A DNA stretch of 63,135 nucleotides, counting the filler, from Hausera hauseri (lineage: Eukaryota), in assembly GCA_046269625.1 (NCBI GenBank). It is 10 parts of 10 records of this genome, joined end to end, with 100 filler letters (N's around TTAATTAATTAA, not from the genome) between each part and the next. Parts side by side here need not be neighbours in the genome. Positions count along the whole stretch, not along the records: positions 5,237 to 11,078 come from JBJURY010180861.1; 9 more parts are not named here. The stretch is one strand, 5' to 3'. The translations under genes were made by a program, and so were the position numbers. Positions 5,237 through 60,426 of the stretch are shown here, piece after piece. The first letter of the stretch is position 1. The number at the start of each line of letters is the position of its first letter. The notes below the pieces were generated by a model, which was not told the DNA's origin, did not search any database, and was given only the letters and a program-made list of their open reading frames with translations.

Positions 5237-6210
5237 CATCACAAGTATGTCCCACTTGCGATTCCAAGTATGTCGAAGGTCTGATACGTTATGTATCACC
5301 TTTGGACATCGGCCGTGGGACTTGGCAAAAGCCCATTTCCCTAAAAGCAATAAAAATTAATTAATGTAACGCTATTACCTATTCCGCTAGCACCAAACAA
5401 GAGAGCAGTATTGCGATTGGTGCTAAAATCAAACGGAATTGGGTCAATCAGGAACTTGCATTCCGGATGGACCACCACTTCCTTTTGAAACTTTCCATAA
5501 AGGAAACTTTTTAATTGATTATGTCTGATGATATATTACTGCCGGTCAACTAAAGTTAAAATTAATTAAATATATTGCATATTAATTTGTTACCTTGAAA
5601 GATACTGTGTCAAGTGCCTCGTCATAAGAAGAAGCATCGGTGATTTGCCGATACATTGCCTTATTTGACGTTTTATCATTCATTATATCAATGGGGCAAA
5701 CGCCCCATTGAAGGACAGTCGCTCCACCAAACGTTTTTTTGAAATGGCTGCGGTAAATCTAGAAACAATAAAATTAATTACATTAAGAAAAACGATTACT
5801 TCATATAAGTCATCGTTTGTGGGAATTGCGTAGCTGGCACGAAATACATTACTGAAGGTATGTAGCCTCATCGGAGTTTTCAGATAAACCACGTGCCTTT
5901 TGGATTTACTTCTTCCTGTAATCGAACGTACGTAGCACGTTGCTCAAACACGCCACGCATTTCATTCATTTAATCTTAATAATCACCAAATATACTGGGA
6001 TCTCGCCGAAAAACTGTCATGTAATTTCAGCAATTTTCACGATGTTCTGGCTTCTAAAACAATAAAATAATACGGTAATAATAATTAACGTACAGGGACA
6101 TCTTTAACGGATTTCACGTATTTGGATTGCAGTGCACCCACGATATCTTCCGGATCTCCGCGAGATAATGAACTTTTCTGCTGCTCTTCGATTTGGTTGC
6201 AATGGATCAT
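5237..6210 (-). pseudogene. rep: Intron-containing geminivirus/CRESS-like Rep (HUH endonuclease + SF3 helicase), degraded, cut by contig end
   Basis: Minus-strand GT-AG introns at 6093-6054, 5799-5759, 5593-5550 and 5378-5341. Manual splicing gives NYMTVF (motif I position), YVRLQEEVNPKG/HVVYL (motif II region), SHFKKTFGGATVLQWGVCPID, AMYRQITDASSYDEAL, YIIRHNQL, Walker A LLFGASGIGKW, then FAKSH..P.VIHNVSDL..WDILVM leading to Walker B. Several stops and frameshifts. Confidence 0.72.
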
Positions 6211-6222
6211 CTGATCTATTGT

Positions 6223-6507
6223 TTGTGCAGAACATTTGAGGAAAGCTCCTTACTTAATTCCAAATTTCTTAAACATTATTAAATGTTATGCGATAAATAT
6301 TTATTGATAAATATTTGTAGGAACAATTATTTCAAGAATTTTGAAAGTAATTTCAAAATTTCGCCAAATTATTGTCTTCGAAAACAATTGTCATTATACA
6401 TTACCTCACTAATGTTGCTCCAATTAATTTCCGTATTGTGATAAACATTTACAATGGATAATTTGACAAATGTAGTTCCATTGGAAACAATACGAATTGT
6501 CTTAACA
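6223..6507 (+). repeat. About 285-bp direct repeat, second copy at 10791-11078
   Basis: Near-identical text TTGTGCAGAACAT..AAAGCTCCTTACTTAATTCC ... GGAAACAATACGAATTGTC in both places. Confidence 0.9.
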
Positions 6508-7131
6508 ATATCATTTCAAACAATCAAATGGCAAAAGTTTTATGTTTTCTGTCTGTTCCAATCCGTTTATTACGATATAACATCGAATAGTATTAATAGT
6601 AGTATGGTTGCAATGGCCTTCAAAAATTATTTTCTAGATACTATAAATATAATTTAAAAATAATTAGAATTTATTGGCAATTAATAACAGTTCGGTATTC
6701 ATATATTTCAACGAATAGGGTAAAAATGGGCATTGTGGCTCAGTGTTGAGGGATCCAGCAACGCGTTGTATTAGCTAATTACGAACTGCATTGAATTTAT
6801 CATGGTCATCGGTTTCATTTAAGCATGTTTGTACACATCAAGTAATACGTTATACACAAATGCATATTCTCCATTAATAAATAAAACATTATCTCAAGTT
6901 CAGCTATCACTTATTACATATTGCACTAAAGTTATTTATAAAATATTCGACATCCGATATTTGTATAATCAACAGTAATGTAGTGTACAACTATTACTGA
7001 TTTGACAAGGAATCTAATTTGGGTTGATGAAATAATGTGGAAGTTCCTGTTATCATAAATAAATGGATTGTTCAATTTTTACATATAGAAATAATCAGAG
7101 AGAGAGAGGCGTACAAAACATAATGCTGATA

Positions 7132-7465
7132 ATAACTGCGGCTAATATCTGACTTGTCCTAATAGCAATAGCCAAGGTTCGAAAGAAAATATTGTACCTG
7201 TATGTGATAAGTTTCTTATAGTAAATAAAATGAATTACATAAATCTATTTGCAATTATTGTTTATTGAAATTAAATTGATGATATAATAATTATATAACA
7301 ATGATGCAACAATGATAAATAAATCATATAATTCTAATTATTAACATTCATCCATTTCATTATAATACTATTTTCTAGTCATTATTTATCACTTATAGGC
7401 AAATTTTATTTTTTCAAACCTTGGCCGTTGCTGCTAGGACAAATCCGATGTTAGCCACAGTAATA
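7132..7465. mobile_element. MITE-like element with about 60-80-bp imperfect terminal inverted repeats
   Basis: CTGCGGCTAATATCTGACTTGTCCTAATAGCAATAGCCAAGGTTCGAAA matches the reverse complement of TTTCAAACCTTGGCCGTTGCTGCTAGGACAAATCCGATGTTAGCCACAG; AT-rich non-coding core. Confidence 0.7.
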
Positions 7466-7868
7466 TAAAAATACTTTTTCAAATCAAAGCCAAAATAACT
7501 CGATTGAAGATTTTAAACGTGGTAGCTTTTAGCCCTTGTTTAAATATACCCCACTACGTATAAGAATTTTATACTTTATCAAATTATCTGGAGTTTATAT
7601 TCTTTTCAAATTTGATTTATAAACTTTTTATCTTTTTGTTTTATGATTTTTTAACGTTTTGCCGAAATCAAACATTTTCGTCTAATGTTTAATATATAAT
7701 CTGTGGTTATTTATATGCGATTGTTAACGGACTCGGCCACGTCGTATATCAAACGAACGACAACGGCGACGCGGAAAGTACGCCACGGTTGAAATTCAAC
7801 ATGAACCCAGCGCACGAAGCCTAAATGTCTGTTTACTAAGCATAGGAGGAAAGAGCTTTTATGTTTTC

Positions 7869-8276
7869 ATGCTATTTTTCATCTTATCCAACATCAATTG
7901 TCTGAGGCACATAAAGAAGCCCAATCTTCCTCTGCAGCCGGTTTCAATTCCATAAGAAATCCCGACAGTGTTTTCTCATAATCCCGAATTCAGATTGATG
8001 ATTTTTCCTACCGGTAAATATCGAAGAATTGGTTGCAAACAGCCGCTTGTGAATCCAATTGTCCATGTCTCAGATTATGAGTTTACAGTTGTAATCAAAC
8101 GAATTCAATCAATAACGGTAACGTGTTGCCTACAGCGTTTAATAAACATTTATACACTGGCAACGAAGATTGACTGTATTTTTGAACCGGAATTATTTCC
8201 CTCACATATATTTAATATACACCTTACGTTGGGGAAAATGGTCATTGTCGGACTCAAATCGTTGAATTACGGTTGA
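7869..8276 (+). pseudogene. Compact, divergent TATA-binding-protein-like gene, intronless, one in-frame stop
   Basis: LSNINC.. / LMIFPTGKYRRIGCK / IQSITVTC..INI / FEPELFP / GKMVIVGLKS parallel the two TBP repeats (LIFxSGKxxxxGAKS, YEPELFPG). Confidence 0.65.
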
Positions 8277-9520
8277 ATTACCGTTCATAAAATAGTCAAT
8301 GAAACATTGGATGCTATTGTTTAAATGATTCAAAATTAAATCATTAGCAAAATGTGTATATAAACAACTTCATATTTCATTATTTTTCATTTTTCTAAAA
8401 AGAAGAGTAATAACGACAATGAAGCTCAATAATAATAATAATGATAATTTTTCAGACATCAATCCGATTGCGATAGCGAAGATATTAAATCATTAACAGA
8501 TTTTCTTAGTGACAATAATGTTGATAATAATAACAAATGTTATGCCTGCGCAATTTTTGAATCTACTTTTGTAATTGGCGAAATTAATTCATGTTTAATA
8601 TAATTTACAACGATATAAATTAAAAAACCATGAAATCATTATTTTCCTTGCGCTTAAAGCAATGGACGAAAAATCCACATTTATTCCAAGTCCAATTTCT
8701 GCATCGGCGTAGAATATTAAAACATAATATCGGAATAGGATATCTGCATGGAATATCTGTATGGAATATCGCATAGAACATTTTGCATTGACATAGGAGA
8801 TTCACGTCAGCATTGAATCTGGTCATGAATTTTCATTCATTATTTGTAAGTTTCTGTAACAGAAGTAATATGAAAGATTTATTTTAAATCCTGAAATCAG
8901 TTGAAATCAAAAATATAAACAAAAATTTAAATATTTTATCATATTTTCCTGGCAATATCTGATCCCTAGGGGTTTCCGTCAACTGTCTCAACGAGGAAAT
9001 TGATTTATTTACATATTTGTAAATTTTTTTCTACATTTTGGGGTTTTTCTCTTTTTCCATTTTGCATATTTGATAACAACTCTTCATTTGAACTGAACTT
9101 GCGCATAACAGTCAGAGATACTTAAATTTCACAAACTGTTTGAGCGACAGCATTTACTACAATCACTTAATCGAACGTTAGATTCAAGTTTTAACTAAAG
9201 TTCTGTTTAAATATATTGTGAGTAACGACGTAAATTATAATAGTAATTTTGTTATTTAAAATCCATATTCAGAAACAAATTAAATTCAATTCTTTCGAAT
9301 TGTTGTTTAATTTAATATTTCCAATGTCAACTTTAACGAATAATAAAATACCTGCAAAATTCTCGATAAAACGCATGCTGCATACATGCGTCCGCAGTGC
9401 ATTATATCAGCGTACGTGTTCATATCTAAAATATTGAACTATCCAATAAAAATAATAAAATCAAATTTTATTAAAAAATTCAATGCCATTTAATTAGGTT
9501 TGCTTATAGTTACTCATGAA

Positions 9521-10192
9521 ATGTACGATATTGGTTTTGACGTAATCACAGACTTAATGATGAGATTTAGTCTCCATATGAATTTGGAAATGCCACCAAG
9601 TGAAATGTTTTACACTCTTTGTAACATGTACTGGTATTATATTGACAAACAATTCAAGACAAGAAAGCCCGGTAAGGAAGATTTCCAAGACTTTTACAAA
9701 GATATCTGCCGCAAAGTTCCCAATATTTTTCCACATTTTATTGATATTAATAAAGAATATAAAAAATGGTTGCGTATGAGGTATACAGCTTCACGAGTTC
9801 AAACACTTCTAGTTGATCAAACAGGCAACAATTTTGTAGTATGTAAGTCGGATAATGATAAATATTGGACATTACCAGGTGGAAAAATTGAGGGAAAAGA
9901 CAGGTGTCCTAAAGATGCCGCGATACGAGAAACATATGAAGAAGTTGGATATGACATTAGTAGAAGTGTTAAACCTCAACTCAGCTTCGACATAAGATTC
10001 AGTCATTGTCATATTACATATTTTATCATTTTAAATATTAATATGAATACATGCTTTGCACCGCAATCAACTAAAGAAATTCAACAAGTAAAATGGATGA
10101 GTTTCAATCCGGACACTTGGACTGGTGATTCCGCACAATATACAATGCTAAGAGATGCAGTTGAGAAAGCTCGCAATATTTTAAACAAATAA
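9521..10192 (+). CDS. Dcp2-like mRNA-decapping Nudix hydrolase (Box A + Nudix, no C-terminal tail), intronless and intact
   Basis: Box A-like DLMMRF...MFYTLCNMYWYYID; Nudix box WTLPGGKIEGKDRCPKDAAIRETYEEVGYD; FAPQSTKEIQQVKW; AATAAA overlaps the stop codon. Confidence 0.85.
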   Translation: MYDIGFDVITDLMMRFSLHMNLEMPPSEMFYTLCNMYWYYIDKQFKTRKPGKEDFQDFYKDICRKVPNIFPHFIDINKEYKKWLRMRYTASRVQTLLVDQTGNNFVVCKSDNDKYWTLPGGKIEGKDRCPKDAAIRETYEEVGYDISRSVKPQLSFDIRFSHCHITYFIILNINMNTCFAPQSTKEIQQVKWMSFNPDTWTGDSAQYTMLRDAVEKARNILNK

Positions 10193-11178
10193 AAATTTAC
10201 TTTTAAAAGTTAATAAATGTATTTTTAACAGTTTCATTCTTTGTACTTTTTAACACAATAAACATTGATAAACAAGTACGAAAAAATAATTAACAATATT
10301 TTTAAAGAATATTAACAGAGGTTCAAAAAATGCATAGAATTTTTACATAGTTTGTAAAATAAATTTTATATTAAATTTATATTTTGTGTATAGAGTATAC
10401 TTCGAAAAACGGTTAAATGGTTTTGCAGTGTTAGTCTATTAAAAATAATTTATTATCAGTTCATGAATTAGTATTCGAGGCAATGACCAAATTGAGTAAA
10501 ACCTATTCATTACATACGTTTTAAGTACGTATCGGCCAAATTCATTTTCCAAAACTCATTTCGTTGAACACGTTATTGAATTTATTTGAATATGATTAAA
10601 AAATTCACTATTTTGATATTTAAATTACACCAATATTAAACAATTGAAACCGCCAAAGAAGTTTCATAACCACTCTTCCGGAATTTGTGTTTGATTTGTC
10701 TATTTTGATCTGCAGTAAAATATATCTTTGGGTCAACTGGAAATAATATCTTGAAATTTTCACTGGATGTTCTTTTGTTCAGAATCTTTGTTGTGCAGAA
10801 CATATGAAGAAAGCTCCTTACTTAATTCCAAATTTCTTGAATATTATTAAATGTTATACGATAAATATTTGTTGATAAATCTTTGTAAGGACAATTATTT
10901 TGAGAATTTTTAAAACAGTAATTTCAAAATTTCGCAAAATTATTGTCTTCAAAAACAATTGTCACTATACATTATCTCACTAATGTTTCTCCTATTAATT
11001 TCCGTATTCTGATAAATATTTACAATGGATAATTTGACAAATGTAGTTCCATTGGAAACAATACGAATTGTCATAATANNNNNNNNNNNNNNNNNNNNNN
11101 NNNNNNNNNNNNNNNNNNNNNNTTAATTAATTAANNNNNNNNNNNNNNNNNNNNNNNNNNNNNNNNNNNNNNNNNNNN

Positions 11179-14100: not shown

Positions 14101-15578
14101 AGGGGAAGAAGAGACACTGCTGCTCCAGAGTCGATTAAAAAATTAATCGATTGAGTGAGCTTACTTGTTATTAAGGCGTTTAGAGTAAATACGGCATAAG
14201 TACGGCTATTACGGTGGAGATATTTGCCTGTGCCAGCATGCGCCAAAACATCTGGCGGCTTTAGCTGTTTTTTAAAGCTACAGGATTTAAATTGTTGGAA
14301 GGAGTAGGCTGTGAGGAATTGGAACGGCCGATAAAGGTGCAACCTGCAATGCAGTTGTGCGCTTTGGTGTTAAATTTATTGCGGTATATACAAACGATGT
14401 CAGGTTGTCTGAAACTAGGCGCATAAAACCTACATCCTAAGCAACATTTATTAGTATTATTTTTGAATTTGGTGCAATAGTAACACACCATCGGTCGCGC
14501 AGGCGACCTCGCAAGTCTCGAATTTTGAGATTAAGTGCGGCTATGGCCCGCATCAAAATGATTCCGTCTCAGCATGTTCAGGGCATCTATTTTTGACGTG
14601 ATTAATGAGACTGTCTGATATATTGGCATTTTTGGTACGAAAAGAATTTATTTCTTTGTTCAGAGTTGATATTTTGTTAATCTGTTGTGTCGGTGCCCTT
14701 TGTAGCGTAGCAGCGACTAATGGCGGTGATTATGAACGTAGTATTTCGTGACTTTAATCAGCTAATTGTGCCAGTTTTTGTAGTGTCTCTGTGTTCTCGA
14801 TTATTGTGAGGAGTGCACGAATGTCTCTTGGTAGAGACTGCAAAAAGTATCTGCGTAGTAAATCAACGTTATTCGTCTGGTTGACACCCAAAGTGCTCAA
14901 CTGAGTTAATGCGGTCTGAAAAAACTCGGAAGGTTGTAAATTTCCTATAGTGTTATCATTAAAATACTTGTGGATGATATTAGCCAAAGACGGCTTTGTG
15001 ATTTTTAAGACCGAATTGAAGAGAAAATGGTATAGATCGCTGCTTTTAAAGACTTCTGACAAGTTGGAAATCTGCGATTTTGTGTGGGAGCAAGAGAATA
15101 AGAAGGATGTTTGCCTTAAGAAAAGCATCAATGATGTTGTTGGATTTTAGCCATAAAGCATGAAATTCCAGCCATGTTCGGCTGGGATGTTGTTAGTCAG
15201 CAAAGTATTCTACACAAGGTAAGTTGAAGGTAGATGACAAAGATGGAGCGGATTTTTGAGGTACGCTGATAGTGGTAACGTCGGCGAGGACTTTTTGGTC
15301 TTTAGGCGAGGCTTTCGGATCAAACCCGCCGAGTAGACAAACATGGATAGTTAGAAGAAGAGTTGACGATCTAGAAGTATAAGGTGCAAGGATTTCGGAT
15401 GACTGGAGAAAAATGCCCTTATAAGAAAGGCGGAAATTGGTAAAATTTGGTATGGTGTGTCAACACATCAGACAAGTTTTTGACCGCGGCTGTATAACTT
15501 GCATGACATTTGTGTACCTGTTGATTTTGAAAAAAGAAAACGAGTTGGATTAAATTGTCCAAAACGCCAGGGGAATAT
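11179..15578 (-). mobile_element. Ty3/Gypsy family A copy 2 internal region (gag, protease, RT, RNase H, integrase; degraded)
   Basis: Gag with two CHCC-type boxes (14261-14491), protease FLIDSGAAVSLL, RT MPFGLKNAAQTFQR/YIDN, RNase H TTDTS..LEFFSRKL, integrase DIVGPLP/TDQGPQF. Confidence 0.95.
14241..14273 (-). promoter_or_regulatory. Putative -1 programmed frameshift signal (gag to pol)
   Basis: A-AAA-AAC just before the gag stop, followed by hairpin CGCCA-gatgttt-TGGCG; same layout at 46879-46910 (A-AAA-AAC-TGA + GCCGT..ACGGC) and degenerate near 28225-28260. Confidence 0.7.
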
Positions 15579-15630
15579 TGTGGCACGCAGGGTGAAGGCA
15601 TCGCAGGCTCCCGGCAAAGTGGTTCCCGGT

Positions 15631-16218
15631 TTATCCAACCGAGAAACTAACCATCGAAGTCGAAATCGGACAATCCCTGCCCGTTAGTGTCGGGATTTTA
15701 GAATTCGAATTTTTGCTTATTGCTAGAGTTACTTTTGAATGATATTTTATGGCGTTAATTGCGATGTAAAGGGTATTTCTTTGGCCGTTTAATTTCTCGT
15801 CACCTGGTTTCGAGACAAGAATATTAGATTTTGATAATATCAAGAAAACTTCTAAAATACTGGTTACCTTTTTCTCGTAAGTTTGAACAATATGATGTCT
15901 CAGCGTTTGAGATTTTATAACCAAAATGCCAGTGAAAATGCGATTATGTTTGTTTTTAGTGGTTCGTGTATTTTTTAGAGCTTGGTGATTTAACACGTCA
16001 TTGCTCATGTTTCTCAGATTGTTCACATATGAAACTCCAAAATCAGTGCATCTATCCTGTAGTGAATCAAACCACTGAGAATTAAGAATGGGTTCAAATT
16101 TTAGCAAAACCAATGCATTATTTTCATGAGGCGAGACTCTAACGCTACTGATTTTTTGTCCAAAAAAACGACTAAGAATTTTGTGGTGGTCTATTTCTAG
16201 TGTGTTTGGAGAATCCAA
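15631..16218 (-). CDS. Hypothetical protein (cargo within putative LTR)
   Basis: 195-aa ORF, family not recognised. Confidence 0.3.
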   Translation of the reverse strand: MDSPNTLEIDHHKILSRFFGQKISSVRVSPHENNALVLLKFEPILNSQWFDSLQDRCTDFGVSYVNNLRNMSNDVLNHQALKNTRTTKNKHNRIFTGILVIKSQTLRHHIVQTYEKKVTSILEVFLILSKSNILVSKPGDEKLNGQRNTLYIAINAIKYHSKVTLAISKNSNSKIPTLTGRDCPISTSMVSFSVG

Positions 16219-16517
16219 TAATAAACTAAAATGTTAGAACCCAGCAACTGTTCAATGTAATGACTTCAAACGACACATCGAAATAGCTTTTTAAGCAATC
16301 CCAAAGGAGCCTTTCTTTTTCTAACGTTAACATGTAAAATTGTGTCAACCGAAATTTTTGTGGGCTGTTTGCTTTGGACGTGGCGGCGGGTTGTTTCCCT
16401 TTGATATTGCATAAGACGCAAAAGGCGTAGATAAAATACCCAAGAATTTTCGACGGAATATTATCAATTTTACACCTAAATGTCGTACCATGCGGTAAAA
16501 TTATAGAAATAGTCGCC

Positions 16518-18649
16518 TCAGTTAAAGGCCATATAATAGCTCAAATTACATGATAAACTCAACGAATGGCAGACGACCAGCGACTGGTGATCATTGTCAA
16601 CTTCCATGCACAAAGTTTCGGCAGCTCCTTTTTCAGTGAGCATATTAGCAATTTTGTTTTTTTCACAAGGAGTGATCTTGGTAAAATGCAGGGCATTAAC
16701 GTTCATTTCTTTTCTGTTCAACAGGGCTTCAATTATTTCCAAACTAACAGTATTATTAATAGCCAAGTGAAGTAACGTTTTACCTTGCGTTAAACCTGAT
16801 TCGTTTACTTCCATCATATATCTTCCATCTGAAGACTTCAGATTAAGCAACGTCTTTACGACTTCTCATAAATTGTTGATAACTGCGATATGTAGCAGCG
16901 AATGGTTAGTACTTTTTATTCTTCGTAGCGAATGAAGTTTTTGCTCTTATACATATTCCAATAAAACGTTCAAAATGGGTGAATTTTCATATTCGATGGC
17001 ATGTGAGACAGAATTTTTATTTATATCATCGCGAATATTAATATTACATTTTGTGTGTAGTAGCTTTTTGACAAATTCGGTTGATATATTACAAGCTGTA
17101 CTTACAATTAAAGGTGTATGCTCACTTATGTTAACCAAATTCAAAGCCCACGAACAATATGTGCATGCTATTACCAGAATTCTTTCCTCTTGTTTAATAT
17201 AACCTTTTAATACTGTGTTGTGTAATGGGGTCATTACGTCATCCTGTAGCGTAAACACCACTAGCAATTGCTTCTTAAATATTTTAACTGTTTGATAGTA
17301 AAATTTACCGAACGCGTATTTATGACCAATTTGTGCCACTTCGCTTGGACTTTTCTTCGTTTGCGTATTATTGTGACTTAAATCCAATTTACTATCGACA
17401 GGCCTTCTTTTCGGAGGGACAAATATGATTTCTTTTATTATTTTATTTCGTTTCCGTCGGTTTTTAAAATATTTGATATTTATATCACCGTTACTTTTAT
17501 TTTCCTCTTCGGAAAAGCGTTCTTCATAAACACTATCATCCTCTTCCGGAATGATGCACGCGGAATGAGAACCAAATCCGGAGTCCTGATCATAATATAA
17601 GTTAAATCTCCTCACTGTTGATATGGAAACATGTAGTTCATTTATGACGCAATCAGTTTCGATAATTGATTTAAAGGGTTGAGACTCCAACTTGGCCATT
17701 GAAAATATATTCACATAATGCTGTGTATGAATGAGTTTTTGCAATGGTGGTTCATGTAGAACTTGATTCATTGGTTCTTGTTTTCGTTGTTGAGTTCCTT
17801 TTGGTAAGAATGTATTTGTCCATTGATAATGGCTGTCGTTACAAACAATGACAAATTGGCATTTAACAATGAATGTTAACTTAACTGCAGGAAGTGGGGA
17901 AACAAATATAAGCCCATCTTGTTGTTCGCGTTGTAACGTTTTATTTCTATCAGTTATTGAGACATACGGATGAATATTATTATCACATTTTATTTTCTTT
18001 TGTAAAACAATAATTAAATGTTCGCCATTTTCGGCAACGTATTTCGAAGCCATGCACATTATTTCTATTTCGGTATTTTCTTTCGCATTTGCTACCGAAT
18101 GAATCTCAAAAAATTACCCGATATTCCCATCGATCATCGCCAACGAATTGTCATAGACAAAACACCGATATAAAAATCCAATATTCTTTGTGATATTAAT
18201 AGTAAATTTTAAATTTTAGGAATATAAAAACATAAAAAGTGCCGTGCATTACAGAATGAAGAATCCAATAACCCCACGCTGAATCGGAATGTCAGGTGGT
18301 CGAGTTGGTCCAAAAAGCATAATACAGTTCAGTGTGGTCTGTGCACATCCAAGTAGCCATGCGAGTATCGGGTGTCTGTACGGTTTTCCAAAAAGCGCTC
18401 GACTGAAAGCTTAGCCGGTTTCCTGAGTGAATTTGTCGGTAAATTCTGACAACATTGTCGGTTCTGTATGGTAAAATTACGGTGTTCCACCTTAGCTGCA
18501 TTAGAATAGTAAAATATAAAATTCATAACCGGTGCTTTTTGGTGCCTACGCTTAACTCCGACAATAAAAAGCTTCGGCACCGTAAACTTCTCCCAATCCA
18601 ATAGTAAGCAAAAGGCGTAAACATAAATATAATCAGAATAATCCAGCAT
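16518..18649 (-). pseudogene. Divergent Rel-homology/IPT + basic NLS + ankyrin-repeat gene (NF-kB p105/Relish-like architecture), disrupted
   Basis: Ankyrin motifs are clear (TPLHNTVLKG, HTPLIVS, GKTLLHLAINN). The upstream ANAKENTEIEIMCMASKYVAENGEHLIIVLQKKIK..QQDGLIFVSP resembles the RHD dimerisation (IPT) domain; basic KNRRKRNK lies between. The RHD call is by eye only. Confidence 0.5.
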
Positions 18650-23260: not shown

Positions 23261-23388
23261 GTTGGAACATTATTTATCTAACGACTACGTTTCTTCAACA
23301 ATGCAAAGATTCAACCGAAGTTTTCATTACAGCGTACGACAATTTCCTCAAGTAAAACATTACATCAGTCACTAAAAGGAATCGAGAT

Positions 23389-26300
23389 TTGCAGTCTTTT
23401 TTGAAAAGAACGGATCCATTATTGAACACAGAAGATTTATCAAAGCTTTATCTGCTTGTTAAGTCATCAAGGCTCATTATGCCCTCTGATGGGAATTCAA
23501 CGAGCGACAAACGCATTCTATCGGGAAAAGATGCACTGTTAGTCGTTTGGAAGAAAATTGTTTTATGCAAAAAGGATAAACGATTTTATTATCTGGTTTA
23601 CAATTCATCATTAATTTACAACGAAATTATTAGAAATTTTTTGCGACCGAATCTCTACCAGTACTTGTGCAAATTTTTGGATCAAGTCTGTAAAGCATTG
23701 GAAGAGGTGAACGCATCAAATTATTCACGGAGAGCTGGACTATCATTGTACCTTTTACAGAGTCACACTGATGCTGGTCATACAGAAGAAATCGTTCAGT
23801 CATCCGATCCGACGGCCCTATTTGTTGAAAAATATGCTCCACATCTTCTTAAAGAACTACCGATTATTTTCATAAACAACAATATTGGAAAGGCCAAAAA
23901 ATACCGGTGGTATGCAAAGAATATCCCGGAAATGCAAATTTTTGTTAGAACTTGTCGACTTCGAAACAGGAAAGACAAGGGAAAAGACGACGGATCATTA
24001 TTACTAGAGGCTAAGAAAATATTCATGACTCTAACCGAAACCAATGAAACGGGACCGGCACCGGATGCCAAGTCAGATTCTAAACTATCTACTATCACTA
24101 TAAATAAGATATCTGTGGAACAAAGGTGCGCATGTTTGTTCGAATGGGCAAAAATCACTCCAGAAAATAATTTACAACGTCTGTACACACTGTATTAGTA
24201 AAATTCAAGGCATAGTCAATGAAGAAATGCTTTCAATTGCACAAGAAACTGTACTGATTAATTATGAATTGACGGTTTGCGAAGCTGATGGAAGTAACTA
24301 TAAAATTTCTCCGGCTCTGCTAAAAATCCGAATGGTAGCCCTGGAAAAATGCCACTTACTTGTCGATAATATTATTCAATCTGGAAATTCCAGATTAATA
24401 GAGCTCGGATGTTCAGCTCTGTGGAACCTCTGTCTGTCATTATTGCAAGCCAACTTGCAAAAGAAAACCACGGGCCATTTATTTTTGATTGCTGATTCCT
24501 TGGAAAATATTGGATGTCTAAATTATCCTTTCTCTTGCCAAGCTCACATTGAGGTAGCAAAATGTTGGGCAAGAACCGAACAATCGAGTAATGCCATCGA
24601 ATATTTCAAAAAAGCAATACTTTTTGACGAAACAGGAGAATATTCCGAAATAATTGATTTCTTTGTTAATAAAATTCAATTGCGTGAAAAGCTATACGAA
24701 ACCCCGTCTGATCCTTGTGATCATGCTCTTCAACTGTTAGAGCAAGTTCAACCGTCGATCACGACTGGCGAGGTTTCTATTCAAAAACTACAACCTTTGT
24801 TGGCTAAAATAGGTCATTGTTTCTCGCCAGATGATTTTAAGGTGGTGCTCGACAATGGCATATCCATTGAACAGTCGGTGGTGTTCGACGAGGTCCAGGC
24901 TAAATATTTGAAAATGTCTTTTTGGGAAAATGCTACAACTTGATTAAAGACATACCTACAGCGTATTGGAAACATTGATGATAAAAAGAGAATGAACGTA
25001 TGGTCGGATCTGGTGAAATTGTCTCGAAAACTCCAGTTATAGGATATTTGTTGAGTGGCCGGTCATTACGTTGTGTTATATGATGACTGCCAGTAAAAGA
25101 ATCAGTTCCAGACAAATATCGAAAGTGTGTCGGTAAAGGGATCACGAAATCCAGATAACGCTACGGTCAGTTAACCAAACACCTTACCGGTAGAACCACT
25201 AATGGTGGAGAATAAACTATTTGAACCATCAGATGATGCGAAATCCAAGAAAAGAGAAGACAGTGACAGTGCTGGTGGGGTCATCGTAAAACGTGGTAGA
25301 TATGAGAAAGAGTTAGTGAAGATCTTCGTTGACGTTTATTTCATTAGAGCAGAGGCTTTTGTACAGTCATTACGAAATGAAGGTGCCCAGCTATTTACGT
25401 TTCCAGAACAACCCAAAGATCTTAAGAAACATCCAAAGGGTTATGTAAAGATACAATGAAAGAAGACGCAGATTGGAGAAATTTTTGTGAGGTTTTGAAA
25501 AGAATTTTCGAAATGATCGTTAGCTGCTTTACTCAAACTGTAGCAATATCGATTGATCCCCAAGAACAGTGGATCACATGGAATGCAGCAACATACTTAT
25601 GGAACTATAGTATTCATATTATTACACTCGTCAAGCCTGAGATTCTCGCATCGAGTTTTCAGATTATTTATGACATAATTCGCCATGTCATGAATGAACA
25701 TGGCGGAACCTTTGGTTCAGTATGGCCTTATCTTGGTTAATGGAATGGTCCAACGATATATGCCGAATGTAAATTTTGCCATTACCTGAATTTTTAACGT
25801 TCCAATATCTGCTAATGCTGGCGATAAGAAAGGCAAGGAAGGACTAGATTCGCCGAAAACTTAAACAGTTTCACCTGCTGCACAGGTTGACCAGACGGCT
25901 ATTTTTCGGAAAACCATGGAAATTTGTAAATATCTTATGGACTACACAACATATGTCAATATACCGAATTTGGACAATGTTAATTCAGCGAATAATAGCA
26001 ATAAGGCAATTCTGTTCTCTAAATTGATTGATATTCAAGTAAAAGCTTGACTTGGTAAAATGTGGGCACAATATAAGTAAGTGTTACAACAAGGTATAGG
26101 TAGATAATTGGGCGTTGCTGATCCGGAATGTGAAAGCTGTAAGACAGGAAATATTCGGGCAATAACGGCAATAAATATGTTGTAGATTAGTCAAAACGAG
26201 TTGTACAAATTTTCGGATACTCCGAGTATCGATGAAGGCATTAAACTGGCGGAGAGTTGCCAATGGTCCCAGAAATCCTTTCCCATGCAACGTTTTCTTA

Positions 26301-26600
26301 AACTGTGTCATTACATAATGAACGTCGGTTTATCAAATACATTGGTAAAAAACAAGATAACTCGAAAAACTCACACCGATATTGTTTCACATCTTCATGC
26401 AAGCATCAATCAGGTGTTGATGCAATCACGAACATTGAGTCGGGGTTTTGTAAGATTTCGATTAAGGAAAATTACTTACTAACTATTGACAAACTGTTTA
26501 TGGAGCTCTCTCGCATATTCAGTTGTTTGCCACCAACGAAGAAAAAGCCGTTAGTACCAGATAACCGAATTCGAGCTAATATCGAAATTTTTTATGGTGA
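23389..26600 (+). pseudogene. CFAP46: CFAP46 (TTC40) N-terminal part, intronless processed fragment with stops and frameshifts
   Basis: RFYYLVYNSSLIYNEIIRNFL, LWNLCLSLLQANL, CQAHIEVAK, REKLYETP..D.ALQLLEQ and WITWNAATYLWNY match CFAP46 motifs; coding blocks are collinear with no evident introns. 3' boundary approximate. Confidence 0.85.
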
Positions 26601-26920
26601 CCTCAGAAGTGAAAGATTCATTATCAATACGAAAAAAGTGATGAATCGTCAAGTTCTCCAATTGTCGTTAAAGGTAGCTTGTTGCTTACTGAAAAAAAAC
26701 GACGCACCGGTCAATAAAGTCCAAATTACCGATCCCTCGGACTCGTCCATGTCGATTGTTCTCGTGCCATGCACTCCGCGGGAATATTTGAACCTCAGCG
26801 AATTCTCGGACATCGTCAATAAGGGTAATCCAGTCGAGAGAACATGTCATATTTGGCAAAATCCTGCAGACGTCTTAACGTCAGAGACATTCAGACAGGT
26901 TGAAGTTCTTTTTGCAGATT

Positions 26921-26952
26921 TTCGCCCACCAATGCGATCATTGTGCCACTAC
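26921..26952 (+). repeat. 3' terminus of the 5' LTR of copy 4 (inverted repeat of the LTR start at 31945-31984)
   Basis: TTCGCccaccaaTGCGATCAttgtgcCACTAC is an imperfect reverse complement of TGTAGTGcctgaaatgTGATCGCActgggggtttaGCGAA; AATAAA at 26713. Confidence 0.6.
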
Positions 26953-29900
26953 TCTGCGGGCGGCATGCTCAAACCTCTCCCTCATCCAAACAAAAATAGC
27001 TCATATTACCTCACAGCAATTTTCTTTTCTTGCTTTTAGCAATAACCAGCATATAAAAACCATAAGAGCTCCATTGAACAACAGTACAGCTCTTATACAA
27101 CTCTTTATCCTCCTTATTTAATACTTTTGACTTCTAGTTCACCTATCGAGGTCTTATTATACATTCTACCGACTCTTTACTGTTCTCATGTCACAAACAC
27201 CCGATCATCCATCTTACGCTTCACTTTCGCCTTCGGGGTAAATCGGAACCAAATCCATCTTTCTTGGACGAGACATCTACAAATACATACAATATCTATT
27301 GCTTACCAAATTCACAACAACCACGAACTTCGCTGAATCTACCTTGTGTGGATTTTTTTCTTGACAAAAACAATTCTATTAAACCATGACTCCAATTCCA
27401 CCAACAGTAATTAAAATATAACATCACTGATTATTTTGTGCGAGCCAACAATCTTTTAATTCTTCTGCCTACTAATGTTAAGCAGCAGATCAGAAACATC
27501 TCCGAACTGCTTCAATCCTCGACACCTTACGAAACACTCTGTGAGGTAGTACTCCACAACACGGATCCTCGATTGACAACATTATATAAAAATACTTCAC
27601 CGACCATGCTATAAGAAACCAAAAGCTATCCGATTTTCTTAAAACGGCCATTTTGCAGCTTAGCGCCTTAGGCGTAACGCCTACGAAAAACGCGGATTTA
27701 ATTAGCCATTATTTCTTGTCGCCTTTGCCCACCTCAATTAGAGCCTTGCTTGCCATTGTCGACGAGTCTACTGCTATTGAAAAACTGGCCATAATGACTA
27801 ATACATCCTTTAAATTCCTCCATTTTACAAGCTATAGACACAATATTCTTCACTCAACAGTTTTTAATGATTTGAACCATTATAGCAGTCAATTTCGGCC
27901 ACTACCACCCAACTGAACAATATTAAGGGGCCTCAGTAAAGTGAAGTCAGACCTTCAAGGAAGCGAAACACTTCAAGGCACTCTACGCGATCAATTTCAC
28001 CTGGCGGATGCATGGCTTGCTTCTATTATACGAGGTTTTGAAAGGATGCAAAAAAATATTTTTTGGGCTGCGGGTTCTACAGCGAATGATACACTGTGGA
28101 CAACCCTATTTGCATCTACCACAATAAGTTCCAGTCACAGGCTATATCATGTGTGCCTGGTTGCAAATATTACCAAAATAAATCTCTTCTTTTTTTCTCT
28201 CATTCTTATGTTTTTCCAAATCCTTCAAGAAACTAAGAAAGCCGCCAGATTTCATGGCACATTCTTCTATAGGCAGTACATTGAATTCTTCTGGCCGTCT
28301 TAATACCACCTCTGCAGTCTTTCTGTTGAAATCTGCAGTTTTCTCTGACAATTCATTAAATATAGACTTTCTCATTGACTCTGGGGCCGCCTTTTCCCTT
28401 TTATAGCTACCTTCCGCTACAACGTCCAACAATTTCCCTTCGCCTCAACTCTTCACAGCCAGTGGACATCCTTTGCACATTGTTGGCACCACAGAGCTCA
28501 CTTTTACCTTCCACCATTTACCAGACAAGTTTGTTTGGAAGTTCTTCATCGCTAACATAAATTCACCAATAATCAGCTAAAATTTCCTAGCCGCACACGA
28601 TTTGTTCGTTGATTGTAAATACGGCTATCTGCTGTGCAGGAACTCGATAGCAAATCCAATCAAATGTCTTACAGACAATATAGAGAGCAATGCATTTCAC
28701 TCCTCTATAAATATGTTAAACGTCTCGTCAACTATTGACAAAACCTTCGATAAAGTCTGTATTTCTTCAAATATGAATAGCAATTACAAATCTATTTTAA
28801 AACAAAATCCAAATTGGGTGTTGACAGTAGCAATGCCAGTTGCTTTTCGTCAATTACTGAAACTGCTTCTGATAATATGCATCAACCATTATTATCTCTC
28901 GACTCCGATCTTAGATCATACATCACAACGTCTTGCTTTTGCATAGTTAAAAGAGACATCAACTTCAAGCCTCCATCCTCAACTTATCATCATATAGTAA
29001 CAGAGCATCAGAGGCCTATCAAACAAAAGGTCAGACACATGTCGACACGCAAACATAAAGCTGTGAAACAGCAATTTAATAAACTGGAAAAGTCTGGCAT
29101 CATTCGGTGATTGAATTCACCTCGGGTTTCTCTTATTCATGTAGTAGCAAAGAAAGATGGTACTTATAGGCCATGTGGCGACTATCGACAATTAAACAAC
29201 CTGACCATTAGAGATGCTATCCACTACCACTCATTAAGGATATCCTTAATAACCTCAATAACACCGATATCTACTTTACCATTGATCTGTACAAGAACTA
29301 TCATCAGATTCCTGTTGCACATGATCACATTCCAAAAGCTGTTGTCGTAACACCATTTGGCCTTTATAAATTCATATTGATGCCTTTCGGCCTACGTAGC
29401 TCATCTAAGACCTTTCAACGCCATATTGACACCGTACTCTCAGGTCTTGATTTTGCTCATACATATATAGACGTCATACTAGTCGCTTCCACCTTTATTA
29501 AACAACATCATAAGCATCTCCAAATTATTTTCCGCAGATTGCATCAAAGCAACCTGCAAATTAATTTCTCCAAATGTAATTTCTTCCAGAAACGCATCAA
29601 CTTTTTGGGTCACATAATTATTCCCGATGGTCGTTCCCCCAGCTTGATCGCTTACAACAGTTGAAAAATGTGACATTACCAACTACTACTACCGACATTA
29701 GAAGTTTTCTAGGGACACTGCATTTCGTACACAAATATGTGCCACACTGCTCCAAACTGACGGCACCTTTCACACACCTCTCATACGGGAAGAAAAGACA
29801 ATTAATCTGCTGGATTCCTGATCTAATAAACCAATTTAATCGCCTTCGTGAAGGTCTATAAACCGTCAAAATCCTGGCTTTTCCAAAACCAAACGCGGAA

Positions 29901-40418: not shown

Positions 40419-40659
40419 GCTGAGAATCATAGACAGTGCTTGTAAAGAAATAGAAATAACGACTAAATGGGTTTATTCACGTGCAGAATTTCGTATCAGA
40501 CCAAGGGTAGCAACCAGGTTGAGAAGCCATAGAGGTCTCATCTTAAGAAGGTCGAGTGGTGAACTACTGAACTCAGATATTTGAACTTTCTTTGTATATG
40601 TGCTTTTGTATCAGTCATTTGACGTAAATCGCGATTTTGCTGTGTTATGAAGAATTGTT

Positions 40660-42470
40660 GTCTTCTATCCTGTACACTTCTATCCCTCACTCAGATGGCC
40701 TCCGGACGGTCACTTTATTCCTTGACCGGGGGTCCCACCACACTATTGCCACTACAACCCTCGTCCGCCCGACTGAATTGGTCTTGACCCTGAACTCTTT
40801 CGAGTTCAACTGCCAGTTCTTTGACCAAATCAGTGGAGTAGCTATGGGGACTAAGATGGGGACTCCCCATATTGATCCTGAATCAGTCAACTTCCTTGAC
40901 ATCACTATCTCTATTCGAGCCTCCCTGATTACCACTTCTGTCTTTTACAAGCCCACGGATGCCCACAGTTACCTCCTGTACAACTCATCCCATCCTCGCC
41001 CCTGCGTCAACTCTCTCCCCTACTCTCAACTATTACGCCTTCGCCGACTATGCCAGGATGATGGGGATTTCCTCCAGCATGCTCAGGACATGTTAGACTT
41101 CTTCCGTAGAAGACTATATCCGGAAAAAGTTCTGACATCCGCCCTCCAACGTGTTCGCCGGATCTCTAGAGCCACAGCCCTCACATCCAGGCCCGTCAGC
41201 TCCTCTGATAGGGTTAAACTTGTTCTCACTTTCCACCCCCACAGCGCCTCTGTTAAACGGATTCTTTTCCGTCATCTCCCCCTTCTCCTCTCTGACCCCG
41301 AGACCCGGGAAGTTTTTCGTGATATGCCTCTCGTTGCCTATCGACGTGACCGTAACCTAAGAGACCTCCTTGTTCATAGCCGTCTCCGTACGACCAGTGG
41401 CGTCCCCCTTGGCACTTCACCGTGCGGGGAACCTCAATGCCACACCTGTCCCTATGTCCTCCAGACGGACTCGGTGCAGTTCCCCAACGGAACTTACACT
41501 ATACGGCACCGCTTTACCTGTTTGTCTCGGAATGTCATATACGCGCTTGTTTGTAGATCCTGCCCCATGCGTTACATAGGCGAAACTGGTAGGACTTTGA
41601 AAGAACGCTTTCGAGAACATTGGTTGAACATTGATCGGCGCAAAACCTCCATTATTGTGGATCACTTCAATGGCCCTAACCACTCTGGGGTCCGCGACAT
41701 CATGATAACTGCCATTCATTCATGCACCGCAAATACCAGGGCACGTCGATCTTCTGAGAATCACCTTATTTCGTTTCAACACGATCGTTCCACAGGGTCT
41801 GAACACGAATCTTTCAATCCTGTAACTCTGAGCCTCTCACTTCTTTGTCTCCCCTCTTCTCTACTGTCCTCACGGCTTCCCCATTCACCCTGTTCGGTTT
41901 TCTCTGCCCCCTCTCTCCTTCTTTCCCCCACCAAACCCCTCTTTACCTGCTCTCGTCTTCTGGTAATTTTCCATTCTACCTCTGTGCCGGCCTGTTTTCA
42001 CACCCCTTCTTCCCACGTGTTTCCCCCTTCTGTCCACAATCCATGCCTTGACCCTCGCACGCCTCATTGCGTCTCAATCTCTTGCAATCTCTTAACCAGC
42101 CGTGGAGCGTTCATTTCTATTGGACACATTCATCAGTTCAGCTAAGTCTATTGTTTTATATTTTTATTTGTGCCACTACCATTTTTCTCTTCATTCTTAT
42201 TCTTACTTATTACCATTATTACTGTTATTGCTCTTTCCTTCCTAGTATCTTCTGTTTCAGTCACTCGTCCATTGTTCTGTCCTTTATTCCAGTTGTACTA
42301 CTATCTCCCCCCACTAACTTCTTCTCACCATGTAAGTCGACTCTTCTTTCTCTCTCTCGATGTAGTTGTACCTGTTATCGTTCGTCGCGTCCTATATGCT
42401 TGTATACCTGATGAAGACCTTGTGGTCGTAACGTAGTGCTTGTTCTTTGTCTACTGGTAAGACCCTATAA
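40660..42470 (+). mobile_element. Penelope-like element, internally deleted (RT remnants + GIY-YIG endonuclease)
   Basis: LYTSIPH, QISGVAMGTKMG, FLDITI..YKPTD.HSYL..SSHP, NVIYALVCRSCPMRYIGETGRTLKERFREH. Confidence 0.92.
42405..42438 (+). ncRNA. Minimal type I hammerhead ribozyme motif of the Penelope terminal repeat (core variant GUAA)
   Basis: UAC-CUGAUGA-A-GACC(UUGU)GGUC-GUAA-CG-UA-GUG; GAAA is replaced by GUAA. Confidence 0.7.
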
Positions 42471-46933: not shown

Positions 46934-47776
46934 NNNNNNNNNNNNNNNNNNNNNNNNNNNNNNNNNNNNNNNNNNNNTTAATTAATTAANNNNNNNNNNN
47001 NNNNNNNNNNNNNNNNNNNNNNNNNNNNNNNNNTCTACTTACAACTTTATCAGTAACACAGCATCTTTATAAAATTTAATTACAAAAATATAAAATTTTA
47101 TAATTAAAATTTGACCTTGCAAACATACATACGTCATTCGCAATTTTTTGAGAAATAAGTATTTATTGTTGCAATCATCTTGCTTACATTTACTTTTTTT
47201 GCTCTTTTATATATATATATATATCTTTTCGTATGTATTTTCGTATTCGTCTAGTTTTATGTCAAATTTACGCCCCAAGTAGAGGATGAAATCGTAGTCT
47301 CCGGCGTCAGTTGCGTTCTTAATCCTTTCATCTATGAATTTAGGTTTGATATCCCATTTTTCAATGAGATAGTGCCAAATGCGTGGCCAATTTTCGTACT
47401 CTGTATAGTCTGCATGAGAAAACATTGCATTGAGATCGGTTTTGAGCTCTGTCAGCATCATTTTGCAATGTATGAATGTTAGAAAGCCTCAACACCGTTC
47501 TTCATTTCATTTTCAATGTCTTTAAGGACCAGGTCTACTAGGACAACCTTCTTATCACGTAGCTTATCAAGGAGTTTCTGGTCTAGGTACATGTGCTTGA
47601 GGATAAATAATATCGCATGCGTATCCGCCTCAGATATAGCAGAGTCCAATAACGCTTCCATTGTGCTTACTTAGCTTATGCGTAATATTGTTAATCTTTA
47701 ATACGGCACCGCGCGCCAGTGGTTCTAAGAATATGGCGGGGGTGCACTTGGCAACTCATGTTCCGTGAGATAATCT

Positions 47777-48451
47777 TCAGGATCTGAAGCACAGTCCCCA
47801 CTGACCACGGGACGTGAATGAGCAGCCGCAGCTCAGTGAGAAGTGAAAGTGGCCATGTGTTTTGCGAACTCGGTGCGAATTTCCTCCCGGCCCCGCTCCA
47901 TCCACTCCTTTTTGTGACACCTCATCAGCCGGTTTCCCGGAGCGCCTCTTAGACTGCATTTCATCCTTCATGGTCTGGTACCGATCTATCTCATCCGATA
48001 TGAGTTTGAACTCCTCAGCCGAGATTTTGCCATTGACCAACGCCTTTGATATCATTTGGTGGACCGAGGTCAGATTGGTTCTAGCCAACATCTCAACCGC
48101 GGTATGCTTAGCGGCCTTAGCTGTGCACTTGCTTGCAACTAAACCACAGGCCAAGTCTACAACAAAGGCCCCAGCCCCCAGGGCTGCCAGCACAATTCCA
48201 GGAAGCGCTCCATTTCCACTTCCCAGCAGCGCCAGCCAAGTGGCCTCCATTCCGAGGCCTAGAACCCTAACTCCAGTATTCACCCCTTGGGCAACTTTGA
48301 CAACGAGCCGATACTTCTTCTGTATTTTCCGTCGCTCCTCTGCTTCTTTTGCTAGGAAAGCATCTATCTCTGCGACACGATGGAGGTGAAAGCCGTCACT
48401 GGGGAGCCCCGACGCAACACCGTCAGGTGTTAATACAGGATAAAGAGGCAT
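47777..48451 (-). CDS. Conserved hypothetical protein with central hydrophobic hairpin (Maverick-like element)
   Basis: F.LHRVAEID.FL..E...R..IQKKY; hydrophobic GALPGIVLAALGAGAFVV; KH..V.MLA...L.SV...ISKAL.NG.IS.EEF.LI.DE..RY..MK. Confidence 0.6.
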   Translation of the reverse strand: MPLYPVLTPDGVASGLPSDGFHLHRVAEIDAFLAKEAEERRKIQKKYRLVVKVAQGVNTGVRVLGLGMEATWLALLGSGNGALPGIVLAALGAGAFVVDLACGLVASKCTAKAAKHTAVEMLARTNLTSVHQMISKALVNGKISAEEFKLISDEIDRYQTMKDEMQSKRRSGKPADEVSQKGVDGAGPGGNSHRVRKTHGHFHFSLSCGCSFTSRGQWGLCFRS

Positions 48452-49280
48452 ATGTCGAAACGGCAAGAAGGTAACTAAGAAGTATTCTCTAATTTTTCAA
48501 TTGCGAAATGAGTTGCTCGATTCGGTGCTTGCTGACCGGGCTGCAGGAGAACAAAAGCTGGACGAAGACAAAGGATAAGCCAAAGCTGATCTCGTCAACG
48601 CCGACTTCTTTGAGCTCCGCGATAACATCCTGCTCTGACGCGCGCGCCGCCCACTTCCAATCGGCTCCAGAGGTTACAACCAGCGCGATATGCCTACCTG
48701 ACTTCGCATCGGCAGCTGCGGCCCACTTGATGGAGACCCCGGGGAGGACAGGCTTAGGCTCCGTTTGTGCTGCTGGCGGAATGAAGAGTTCGATATAGAT
48801 AGTAGACCCTGGCGGAGGCTTTACAAGGTGAGCAAGGTCGGTATCAAACTCGGTTGCAGCTTTCATTCAGTATTTGACATTTGCTTTCATCTCTATCGCC
48901 CCCACCCCATAAATGAGAGCCTTGGGACTTTGAACTTTGAGAAAGCTCTGGGTAGTGGTAACTGGGGGTTGAGACCCCCGAACGATTGATTTGCATGCCT
49001 GATAACTCACGAGAAGCTTGCCTTGGTTCTCAAACCGGACAAGCATATGGTTGTGCTTGATGTACGTGAAACCACGACGGAGCTCGAGCTGGACGTCCCA
49101 GTCATCATCATCTGGGTGGTCGACAGGGGCTCGAGAGTAGTAGCCTTTAGAGTCCAAGCGGAGCCCGTATATCTTGTGGACGTCGCCAGGCTCTCTGAAC
49201 CCGACCGTATCACCGAGATCAGCGAGCGTTAGAGTGCTACATATGTGATGCGCGTGCCGCCCGGGCCCTTCTTGGTCTAC

Positions 49281-49937
49281 CATAGTAGTTGTTTGTTAGC
49301 ACGTCGAACCTCGAGAGTAAGACTGAGGTAGGCGAGTGGCAATTTATCACCCTCTACAGTAAGGGAAGAGACTTCAATTTGAGACAATGTCCCACTCTCC
49401 AGGCGTTTAAATGGGGCGTCGCGAATGTGAGGTGCCGCCCATCGTTGCATTTCTCCTGCCCAACTGGAATCGCTCTCAGAAGCGTCGATGGAAAACTATT
49501 GTGCCGGTTCTCGTACGTTGACAGCCCCGCTAGGTGAATGTAGATTTCCTTGTATACAGCGAGGCGAGGGAATTCAGACGCGGTAAAACGATCGCCCTTT
49601 CGATCGGTTTGTTTGAAGTTGTTAAACCCGAGAAGGGAACCTAGCCGGCCCAAATCTAGTGGCTTTGATAGGCTGCTTATGGAGACAAGCCCGGTTGCTG
49701 GGCTAAGTCTTAGAGTCAACCCGAGAGGGGTAAAAATCTCTTCGTTAAGCGCACAAACGTCCCAATAGCCATCAGGGATTTTAACCACCCACCCACCAGC
49801 ACTTCTGATATGTTTAGCCATGCGGGGTAGTAAAGGATCTCGCTGAGGGACACTTCCTTGTTTCTATCGCGATTGTCCAAGACCGGGTTGAGGGGGATGG
49901 GCATCCCATATTGGACGTTCGACAGTGTGATGAACAT
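49281..49937 (-). pseudogene. Minor capsid (penton)-like protein, frameshifted
   Basis: VSLSEILYYPAWLNISE, IPDGYW, LGSLLGF, IYIHL..STLLRAIP and F.RLESGTLSQIEV..SLTLEVR follow the Polinton penton pattern. Confidence 0.65.
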
Positions 49938-49970
49938 AGCCGTTGCGAAGCAATTCACGGAACGTGGATC

Positions 49971-51223: not shown

Positions 51224-51618
51224 CTTCATAGCCATATAGTCACGAGCCGACAGATAGACAATTCCAACGATACCAACAACAAGGGCCCAGAGATTCTCGG
51301 CGAGCCACCCTACAGCCTTCTGAGCAGTGGATAGGAGCCACGAAACAATGCTTCCGACGATTCCTGGGAGCGCGGCAGCGGCTTTTTCAGCGAGCTATCC
51401 TAGGAGGCGCCCGAGATCTTGTAGGCGTTGCTTGACCCAATCCTTGATGCCGCCCTTGTCCGGAGGCGAGGGGGCGACATTGCCACCACTGCCGCCACCT
51501 CTGAAAGCGAGAACGATGGTCGAGATGATCCAGCCGAGCGCGGTCAAGATGGTCACAATTGTCACCCCCTGCTGCCGAAATAGTTCGCGAATTCTCTCTC
51601 CCCATGTCTCCTTGCTAT
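51200..51618 (-). pseudogene. C-terminal part of a multi-pass membrane protein of the Maverick-like element (not in ORF track)
   Basis: Manual translation: ERIRELFRQQGVTIVTILTALGWIISTIV..WVKQRLQDLGRLLG*LAEKAAAALPGIVGSIVSWLL..VGWLAENLWALVVGIVG. Confidence 0.65.
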
Positions 51619-60134: not shown

Positions 60135-60426
60135 AATAAAACACGTTTGGTGGTGTCAAATCAGATCAGATTAGATACAGATAATTCAATATTGTGACAA
60201 TTATTGACAATTATCTTTTGTACATAGTTTTATTTTAATGTTAATAACGTACTTTGTTCACTGTCTTTTGTGTTTTGTTTTCTGTTACTGACTTAACTTC
60301 TTATTTTTAAGTACGATAAGGTAAAACTAAAACAATAACCTTGCACGAGAAAATAAAATATGCAACACGAATACATTTATTTATTGATCGGCGAAAAACT
60401 AATATCACAAAAACACGCAAAGTCAG

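Follow-up and report, generated by a model that had tools for sequence, protein, structure and literature searches.

The closest described relatives of the gene reported here are the Gemini_AL1-type Reps of Repensiviricetes-like CRESS viruses (geminiviruses, genomoviruses and unclassified relatives), in which the central helical domain likewise leads into an SF3-type Walker A, with order and spacing as in the present gene. In mastreviruses and genomoviruses Rep contains a single intron. Reps composed of an HUH and an SF3 part can nick, unwind and rejoin single-stranded DNA, and roles have been assigned to their motifs (PMC5714925); splicing of Rep is on record for some viruses of the Gemini_AL1 type (PMC7758297, PMC6186406). 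Multicopy endogenous Rep-like sequences have been described from the salmon louse and Varroa, and a geminivirus-like TIR transposon from Tuber melanosporum (PMC3198968). As is proposed for the family described below, these endogenous elements comprise a Rep without a capsid in many chromosomal copies, and for high-copy Rep EVEs a self-mobilisation by Rep alone has been proposed; the main text of that report does not use the word 'intron' (PMC3198968). The Tuber element has separate transposases and 37-bp TIRs, neither of which was seen at our locus (PMC3198968).

Two kinds of eukaryotic transposon have to be considered as well. Replitrons possess a CRESS-related Y1 Rep, with introns inferred in some, and resemble our family in both respects, but they have no helicase (PMC10288648), whereas the Rep described here has an SF3-type Walker A behind its central domain. 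Helitrons combine HUH and helicase in one gene and spread by rolling circle in animals and other organisms; their Rep is of the Y2 type and their helicase is SF1B (PMC10288648), while the match found here is to a CRESS Y1 Rep with SF3, whose Walker A lies about 108 residues after motif III. No Pfam match to a Helitron family was obtained with the exon pieces or the unspliced frames. Viral Reps that are spliced once and endogenous CRESS Reps have been described before; what is new, and sets the present gene apart from Gemini_AL1-type Reps, is the set of four predicted introns of 38-44 nt, one of them inside Walker A. In the mainly open-access main texts searched, we found no Rep described as having several small introns, and passages of two more papers (PMC9615429, PMC12344493) contained nothing further on introns.

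The stretch analysed (the window, 63,135 nucleotides from Hausera hauseri) consists of ten contigs of 4-12 kb each with N-linkers between them. The Rep gene lies on the minus strand at the left end of the contig at 5237-11078, which has a G+C content of 0.30. The end of the contig (5237) truncates the gene just ahead of the acidic pair of Walker B. In the order of transcription its parts are:

6223..6592, minus strand: upstream block, probably part of the unit as its promoter or left end; recurs in other copies
6094..6210, minus strand: exon 1, open from a candidate ATG at 6210, no Rep similarity
6054..6093, minus strand: predicted intron 1, 40 nt, GT-AG, GC 0.20
5800..6053, minus strand: exon 2, where the HUH domain is expected; a motif-I-like NYMTVF near 6014, no motif II
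5759..5799, minus strand: predicted intron 2, 41 nt, GT-AG, phase 0
5594..5758, minus strand: exon 3, motif III position and start of the central helical domain, profile columns 104-135
5550..5593, minus strand: predicted intron 3, 44 nt, GT-AG, GC 0.14, junction out of phase in the window copy
5379..5549, minus strand: exon 4, which completes the central domain (Gemini_AL1_M-like) and encodes the first half of Walker A, profile columns 143-205
5341..5378, minus strand: predicted intron 4, 38 nt, GT-AG, phase 1, interrupting Walker A
5237..5340, minus strand: exon 5, which continues from the second half of Walker A as far as the hydrophobic run ahead of Walker B, profile columns 208-235

All four predicted introns start with GTA, end with TAG and have an AT-rich body and a T-rich 3' end. 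Their G+C content (0.14-0.21) is far from that of the five exons (0.40-0.48). A strict rule, set after the segments had been seen (GTA..TAG, 36-46 nt, at least 78% AT, T-rich end), recovered three of the four in the 974 nt of the gene. Applied to 2000 dinucleotide shuffles it returned no site in 1974 and one site in 26, and never more than one. With a looser rule ten sites were obtained on both strands of the 63-kb window, four of which were the predicted introns; another six turned up when both strands of 79 viral Rep loci (186,929 bases in total) were scanned, at most one per locus. The four intron-like segments are far above chance, and the minus-strand GT-AG introns of 40, 41, 44 and 38 nt described in the initial annotation stand at the positions given there. 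As for size, intron lengths in Gyrodactylus salaris have modes near 32 and 58 nt (PMC4040987) and those in myxobolids medians of 22-27 nt (PMC13644364); neither is an exact fit to the 38-44 nt predicted here.

A Walker profile gave 7.6 bits when intron 4 was removed and at most 2.9 bits when it was kept, and its removal is in frame, bearing out the earlier suggestion that an intron splits Walker A and splices in frame. Around intron 3 the profile selects the frames implied by splicing, yet the window copy is out of phase there; this is the one out-of-phase junction that had been noted from the start. Introns 1 and 2 join stretches without a profile match.

The Rep claim itself was examined with a profile of natural Reps. 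A phytoplasma plasmid Rep led to 31 relatives, and an alignment of eight to the best 150 of 8846 library matches; the final profile comprised 147 gemini-type CRESS Reps, 141 of them new (270-420 aa) and six from the earlier set. It was scored against the five window stretches joined by an X at each break, in 243 frame combinations, 205 of which received a score. In each of the top nine, exons 3-5 stand in the frames that splicing implies, and the scores are 29.4-29.6 bits (P 1.9e-11 per sequence). The next-best combination gave 18.3 bits; no unspliced frame scored above 4.4 and none of 1000 shuffles above 7.3. The collinear match covers profile columns 118-244, from the central helical domain via Walker A to just before Walker B, and the Gly, Gly and Lys columns of Walker A map to exon 4, to the junction at intron 4 and to exon 5. 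With a mid profile, exons 3 and 4 reached 19.5 bits (P 4e-8) in the frames expected from splicing and 8.8 in the next frame pair, and hhalign ordered exons 3, 4 and 5 along the profile, each weakly (P 0.021, 0.002 and 0.003). By these scores both a central oligomerisation domain (Gemini_AL1_M-like) and a Walker A are present. The residue after the Walker A Lys is non-canonical in the window copy, a Trp encoded in exon 5, where 94% of the profile has Thr. A score of 29.6 bits is borderline in a search of 1.8 billion proteins; it is the tests of frame, order and spacing that carry the Rep claim, and they support an origin of the central domain and Walker A from a gemini-type CRESS Rep. The gene had been called geminivirus-like, which fits the type of its central domain and Walker A but is too narrow a name: the best single protein among 178 was the environmental Rep P0154 (32 bits), with Gemini_AL1 and AL1_M (PF00799 and PF08283).

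The HUH half of the window copy, in contrast to that of Gemini_AL1-type Reps, is not recognisable. For exon 2 an N-terminal profile gave -1.9 bits at best, and hhalign gave P 0.18 and 0.44 for its two stretches; the motif-I-like NYMTVF has a fitting spacing and no profile match. The profile test of the spliced protein, which had been set beforehand, was thus positive for the SF3 Walker A and the central domain and negative for HUH, and of the Rep-ordered motif blocks aligned by eye only the central domain and Walker A are matched by profile, those of motifs I to III being without a match. Spacing offers a further guide. Once the introns are taken out, 108.7 codons separate the motif III position from the Walker A Lys that follows it, against a median of 108 in the 147 natural Reps. 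At this position stands a His (5746), 34 codons past a break at 5890-5901, where natural Reps have 37-45 residues between the second His of motif II and motif III. From the spacing in natural Reps it appears that motif II is missing at this break and that a His occupies the position of the motif III Tyr, which is present in 146 of 147 natural Reps. The replacement of the Tyr proposed in the initial annotation agrees with this in part; another Tyr lies three residues earlier.

Direct searches returned little. Pfam, queried with the five exon pieces and three unspliced frames, contained no Rep family match, and the PDB sequences none to two unspliced frames. In the protein collection none of 1048 candidates at 185-590 aa and none of five at 30-128 aa was a match. 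Nothing matched a profile built from 31 Reps, most of them from phytoplasmas, the best score being about 0 bits. IMG/VR yielded no relative with exon 4, exon 3 or a 21-nt pattern, nor with the phytoplasma seed. MAFFT could not place the exon pieces, and the best E value of tblastn against the 79 viral Rep loci was 0.027. Two plasmid matches of exon 3 in tblastn were both attributed to chance. A metagenome locus (L002) was rejected on the same ground, its 28-residue match lying in a stop-ridden frame with no Rep-like ORF around it.

The window copy is a pseudogene, with four stops (6029, 5978 and 5972 in exon 2, 5538 in exon 4), two frame breaks (5890-5901 in exon 2 and one near 5606 in exon 3) and motif II missing; the presence of stops had been noted before. 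Related copies were found in two runs, X1 and X2, which have different organism labels and neither of which is recorded as RNA. Their contigs are 70-900 nt long, and contig depth is not equivalent to copy number. In X1 an exact window copy is present (5862-6130, no differences, depth 5.5; flanks at depth 8-14) beside variants of the Rep gene at depths of 78-168 or 4-7. In X2 the variants have depths of 2-13 and the flanks 2.5-3.3. One high-depth variant is near-identical in both runs and exceeds the flanks about 8-fold or more in X1 and about 3-4-fold in X2. The X1 variants show 0, 19, 28 and 46 differences from the window and those of X2 18-26. On exon 2 at least four distinct variants occur across X1 or X2, with depths of 78-121 in X1 for variants other than the exact copy. 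Several diverged copies, as looked for in an HUH transposon, were thus found. Exon 1 could encode an N-terminal extension or be untranslated in part. Other copies can be aligned over 6094-6144 or as far as 6216, and at 6144 one high-depth contig departs from the window sequence.

Each predicted intron is bridged by diverged copies: intron 1 by record 3 of X1 and record 12 of X2, intron 2 by record 1 of X1 (5623-5968, 46 differences), and introns 3 and 4 by record 9 of X2. The intron positions are thereby conserved among paralogues. Of the sequence-level findings that the initial annotation had named as refuting its reading, a missing profile match and introns that paralogues do not share, neither was obtained. 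Among the 8 + 1 joints listed (12 of 37 indel entries) none skips 38-44 nt. Intron 1 varies in length by 1 nt and 3 nt among copies, intron 4 is 4 nt longer in other copies, and intron 3 has at least five differences among those listed, none of them at GT or AG.

The defects of the window copy, by comparison, are largely private to it. All three exon 2 stops (6029, 5978 and 5972) differ in other copies and are sense there, while no difference at 5538 occurs among those listed (40 of 297 and 40 of 66). Contigs of both runs depart from the window sequence at 5889 and 5902, on either side of the break at 5890-5901. Other covering contigs of both runs have an indel at 5606, the position of the break that puts intron 3 out of phase, and covering contigs of both runs differ at 5334 as well, at the unusual residue that follows the Walker A Lys. 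Because the other copies differ at three of the four stops and at both breaks, the window copy is a decayed member of the family, and its odd motifs therefore tell little about the family as a whole. In the case of His 5746 no difference in its first two bases is found among those listed (40 of 297).

Substitutions were counted in 5237-6144, where at least 45 occur among the differences listed (40 of 297 and 40 of 66). Thirteen of the 45 lie in introns, which make up 18% of the length (p 0.049, marginal), and none on GT or AG. Leaving out one exon site behind the 5606 break, the 31 listed exon substitutions fall into 28 codons, of which 10 are synonymous, 15 non-synonymous and three are stops in the window that are sense elsewhere, with none in the reverse direction. 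Among the sense codons 10 of 25 are thus synonymous, against 27% expected; the wrong frames gave 7 of 28 and 2 of 27. Since a wrong frame yields as many as 7 of 28, purifying selection is only weakly indicated.

The remainder of the contig contains the following features:

7132-7464: MITE-like element, 333 nt, with inverted arms of 96 nt (73%) and a very high depth in X1
7956-8273, plus strand: TBP-like piece, broken and strongly diverged (PF00352, E 3.8e-7)
9521-10192, plus strand: Dcp2-like gene, intact, intron-free, 223 aa, with DCP2 box A and NUDIX
10640..11076, minus strand: second upstream-block relic, 92% over 286 nt (10791-11076)

In the upstream block next to Rep, 6227-6285 and 6436-6592 are covered by contigs at depth 78 in X1 and 13 in X2, which diverge from the window sequence beyond 6592. 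The second relic fades into an exon-1-like stretch with no Rep behind it. There a different ORF of 55 aa follows on the minus strand, starting with MFCT, and a 43-aa ORF at 6235 starts with MFCT as well. One X1 contig joins 6850 and 10645 on opposite strands. The TBP-like piece has several related contigs in X1 and X2. The Dcp2-like protein, for which the IMG/VR scan gave no relative, may derive from a host gene, a retrocopy or a large-virus gene. With the MITE-like element, the TBP-like piece, the Dcp2-like gene and the second relic, the contig looks chromosomal.

A capsid gene or a nonanucleotide stem-loop had been suggested as something to look for beside Rep, and neither turned up in 5237-11078, a contig that is missing the 3' side of the gene. 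Tblastn of 231 ORFs from the 79 viral Rep loci gave no capsid-like match on it (capsids diverge fast), and its three nonamer-like sites have stems of 1-4 bp and form no nonanucleotide hairpin. Element termini, a target-site signature or an empty site were not seen on the short contigs, and the 3' side that is cut off may hold a capsid. Rfam gave a single sub-threshold match, taken as chance. No further Rep piece was found elsewhere in the 63-kb window, where gypsy-like relics occur on most of the ten contigs. Among these relics lie long ORFs without a Pfam family together with ankyrin-repeat pieces (23356-24940 and 26302-27036 on the plus strand, 14757-18113 on the minus strand). An ORF with GIY-YIG at 40628-42142 (plus strand) is Penelope-like. 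At 47034-54275 and 58577-63135 capsid-like and protein-primed-polymerase-like ORFs were recognised by eye, with no such Pfam match; these pieces we take to be Polinton/adintovirus-like. A RING finger is located at 61033-61383.

What kind of unit, then, is this gene part of? Tentatively, and at slightly less than an even chance, we favour a multicopy CRESS-derived Rep family that spread as DNA, likely a mobile element resident in the chromosomes of a small-intron eukaryote. The host spliceosome would remove the four predicted introns. Since they are common to all copies examined, the introns predate the divergence of the copies, and they would have been gained most simply during long residence in the chromosome. 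Multiplication would have taken place at the DNA level; retrocopying was rejected as a route of spread because the copies keep their introns, which a spliced mRNA would have lost. Working copies would encode an HUH endonuclease and an SF3 helicase and no capsid. Their Rep might act on the ends of the element itself by nicking, unwinding and re-joining single-stranded DNA, in a rolling-circle or peel-and-paste manner, the nucleophile being either the Tyr three residues ahead of the expected place or the His at that place.

The nature of this nucleophile bears on a second explanation, according to which one old CRESS Rep insertion gained host-type introns, lost nicking and gave rise to a domesticated host gene family by ordinary duplication. 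We regard this as rather unlikely. A family-wide loss of nicking, with His for Tyr, would favour domestication over a mobile element, and the His at the motif III position by spacing points this way. Against it can be held the alternative Tyr three residues upstream and the HUH relaxase MobM, which uses a His as nucleophile (PMC6736028). It is also in keeping with domestication that the HUH half is too diverged for a profile while the central and ATPase parts match, that four introns in about 900 nt amount to a host-gene-like density, and that no element ends or origin are seen in 5237-11078. Transcribed and duplicated endogenous geminiviral reps under purifying selection are documented in plants (PMC7758297), but purifying selection is only weakly indicated in our data. 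Many diverged and broken variants, together with a near-uniform high-depth variant that has its own upstream block, look more like a burst of copying. Were the family domesticated, its intact members could be DNA-binding, oligomerising ATPases, for example dominant-negative decoys against related viruses, and the window copy would be debris of a birth-and-death process.

A near-uniform high-depth variant is also expected from an episomal virus. On this third explanation a CRESS virus of the host would carry four host-sized introns in Rep, the high-depth variant would be viral DNA, either free or latent, and repeated integration would have left the window copy and the other low-depth variants as endogenous fossils. 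The near-identity of the high-depth variant in X1 and X2, with an excess over the flanks that differs between the runs, fits such a virus. So does the size of the unit, at least about 2 kb if unaligned contig tails are counted, as in such a genome, and spliced Reps are known in CRESS viruses (PMC7758297, PMC6186406). However, none of the 79 viral Rep loci has more than one intron-like site, and the 4.8 kb upstream of the gene contain no capsid-like match or origin hairpin. IMG/VR gave no relative by protein or DNA pattern, and the divergence of this Rep far exceeds that of the viral Reps in the profile. We consider a virus unlikely. Finally, that the gene is a misread relic of an unrelated P-loop gene, or AT-rich insertions in junk DNA, could be argued from the empty Pfam, PDB and protein-collection searches with unspliced frames or single exons, the empty phytoplasma-dominated profile and the weak scores of single exons, but this is very improbable, as the frame-combination profile test largely refutes it: the collinear match at columns 118-244 appears in splice-implied frames only, the spacing from motif III to Walker A agrees, and the shuffle controls and the introns kept in diverged copies speak the same way.

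A mobile CRESS-derived Rep family, the explanation preferred here, could be taken one step further. It is conceivable, though we would call it less than probable, that such elements join Helitrons and Replitrons as a third group of eukaryotic HUH transposons, in which a CRESS-virus Rep without a capsid has kept its SF3 helicase, gained four host introns and copies itself in the chromosomes of small-intron invertebrates, possibly nicking with a His. A Rep with four introns escapes ORF-based and translated searches, as the empty results from Pfam, PDB and the protein collection illustrate, so such families may be widely missed. If the family is domesticated, it would show four introns recently gained by a gene whose foreign origin is known. 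If it is viral, it would represent an unusually intron-dense single-stranded DNA virus, with the intron size pointing to its host. If it is mobile, it would provide the long-proposed step from a single-stranded DNA virus to a rolling-circle transposon, with the viral helicase still attached.
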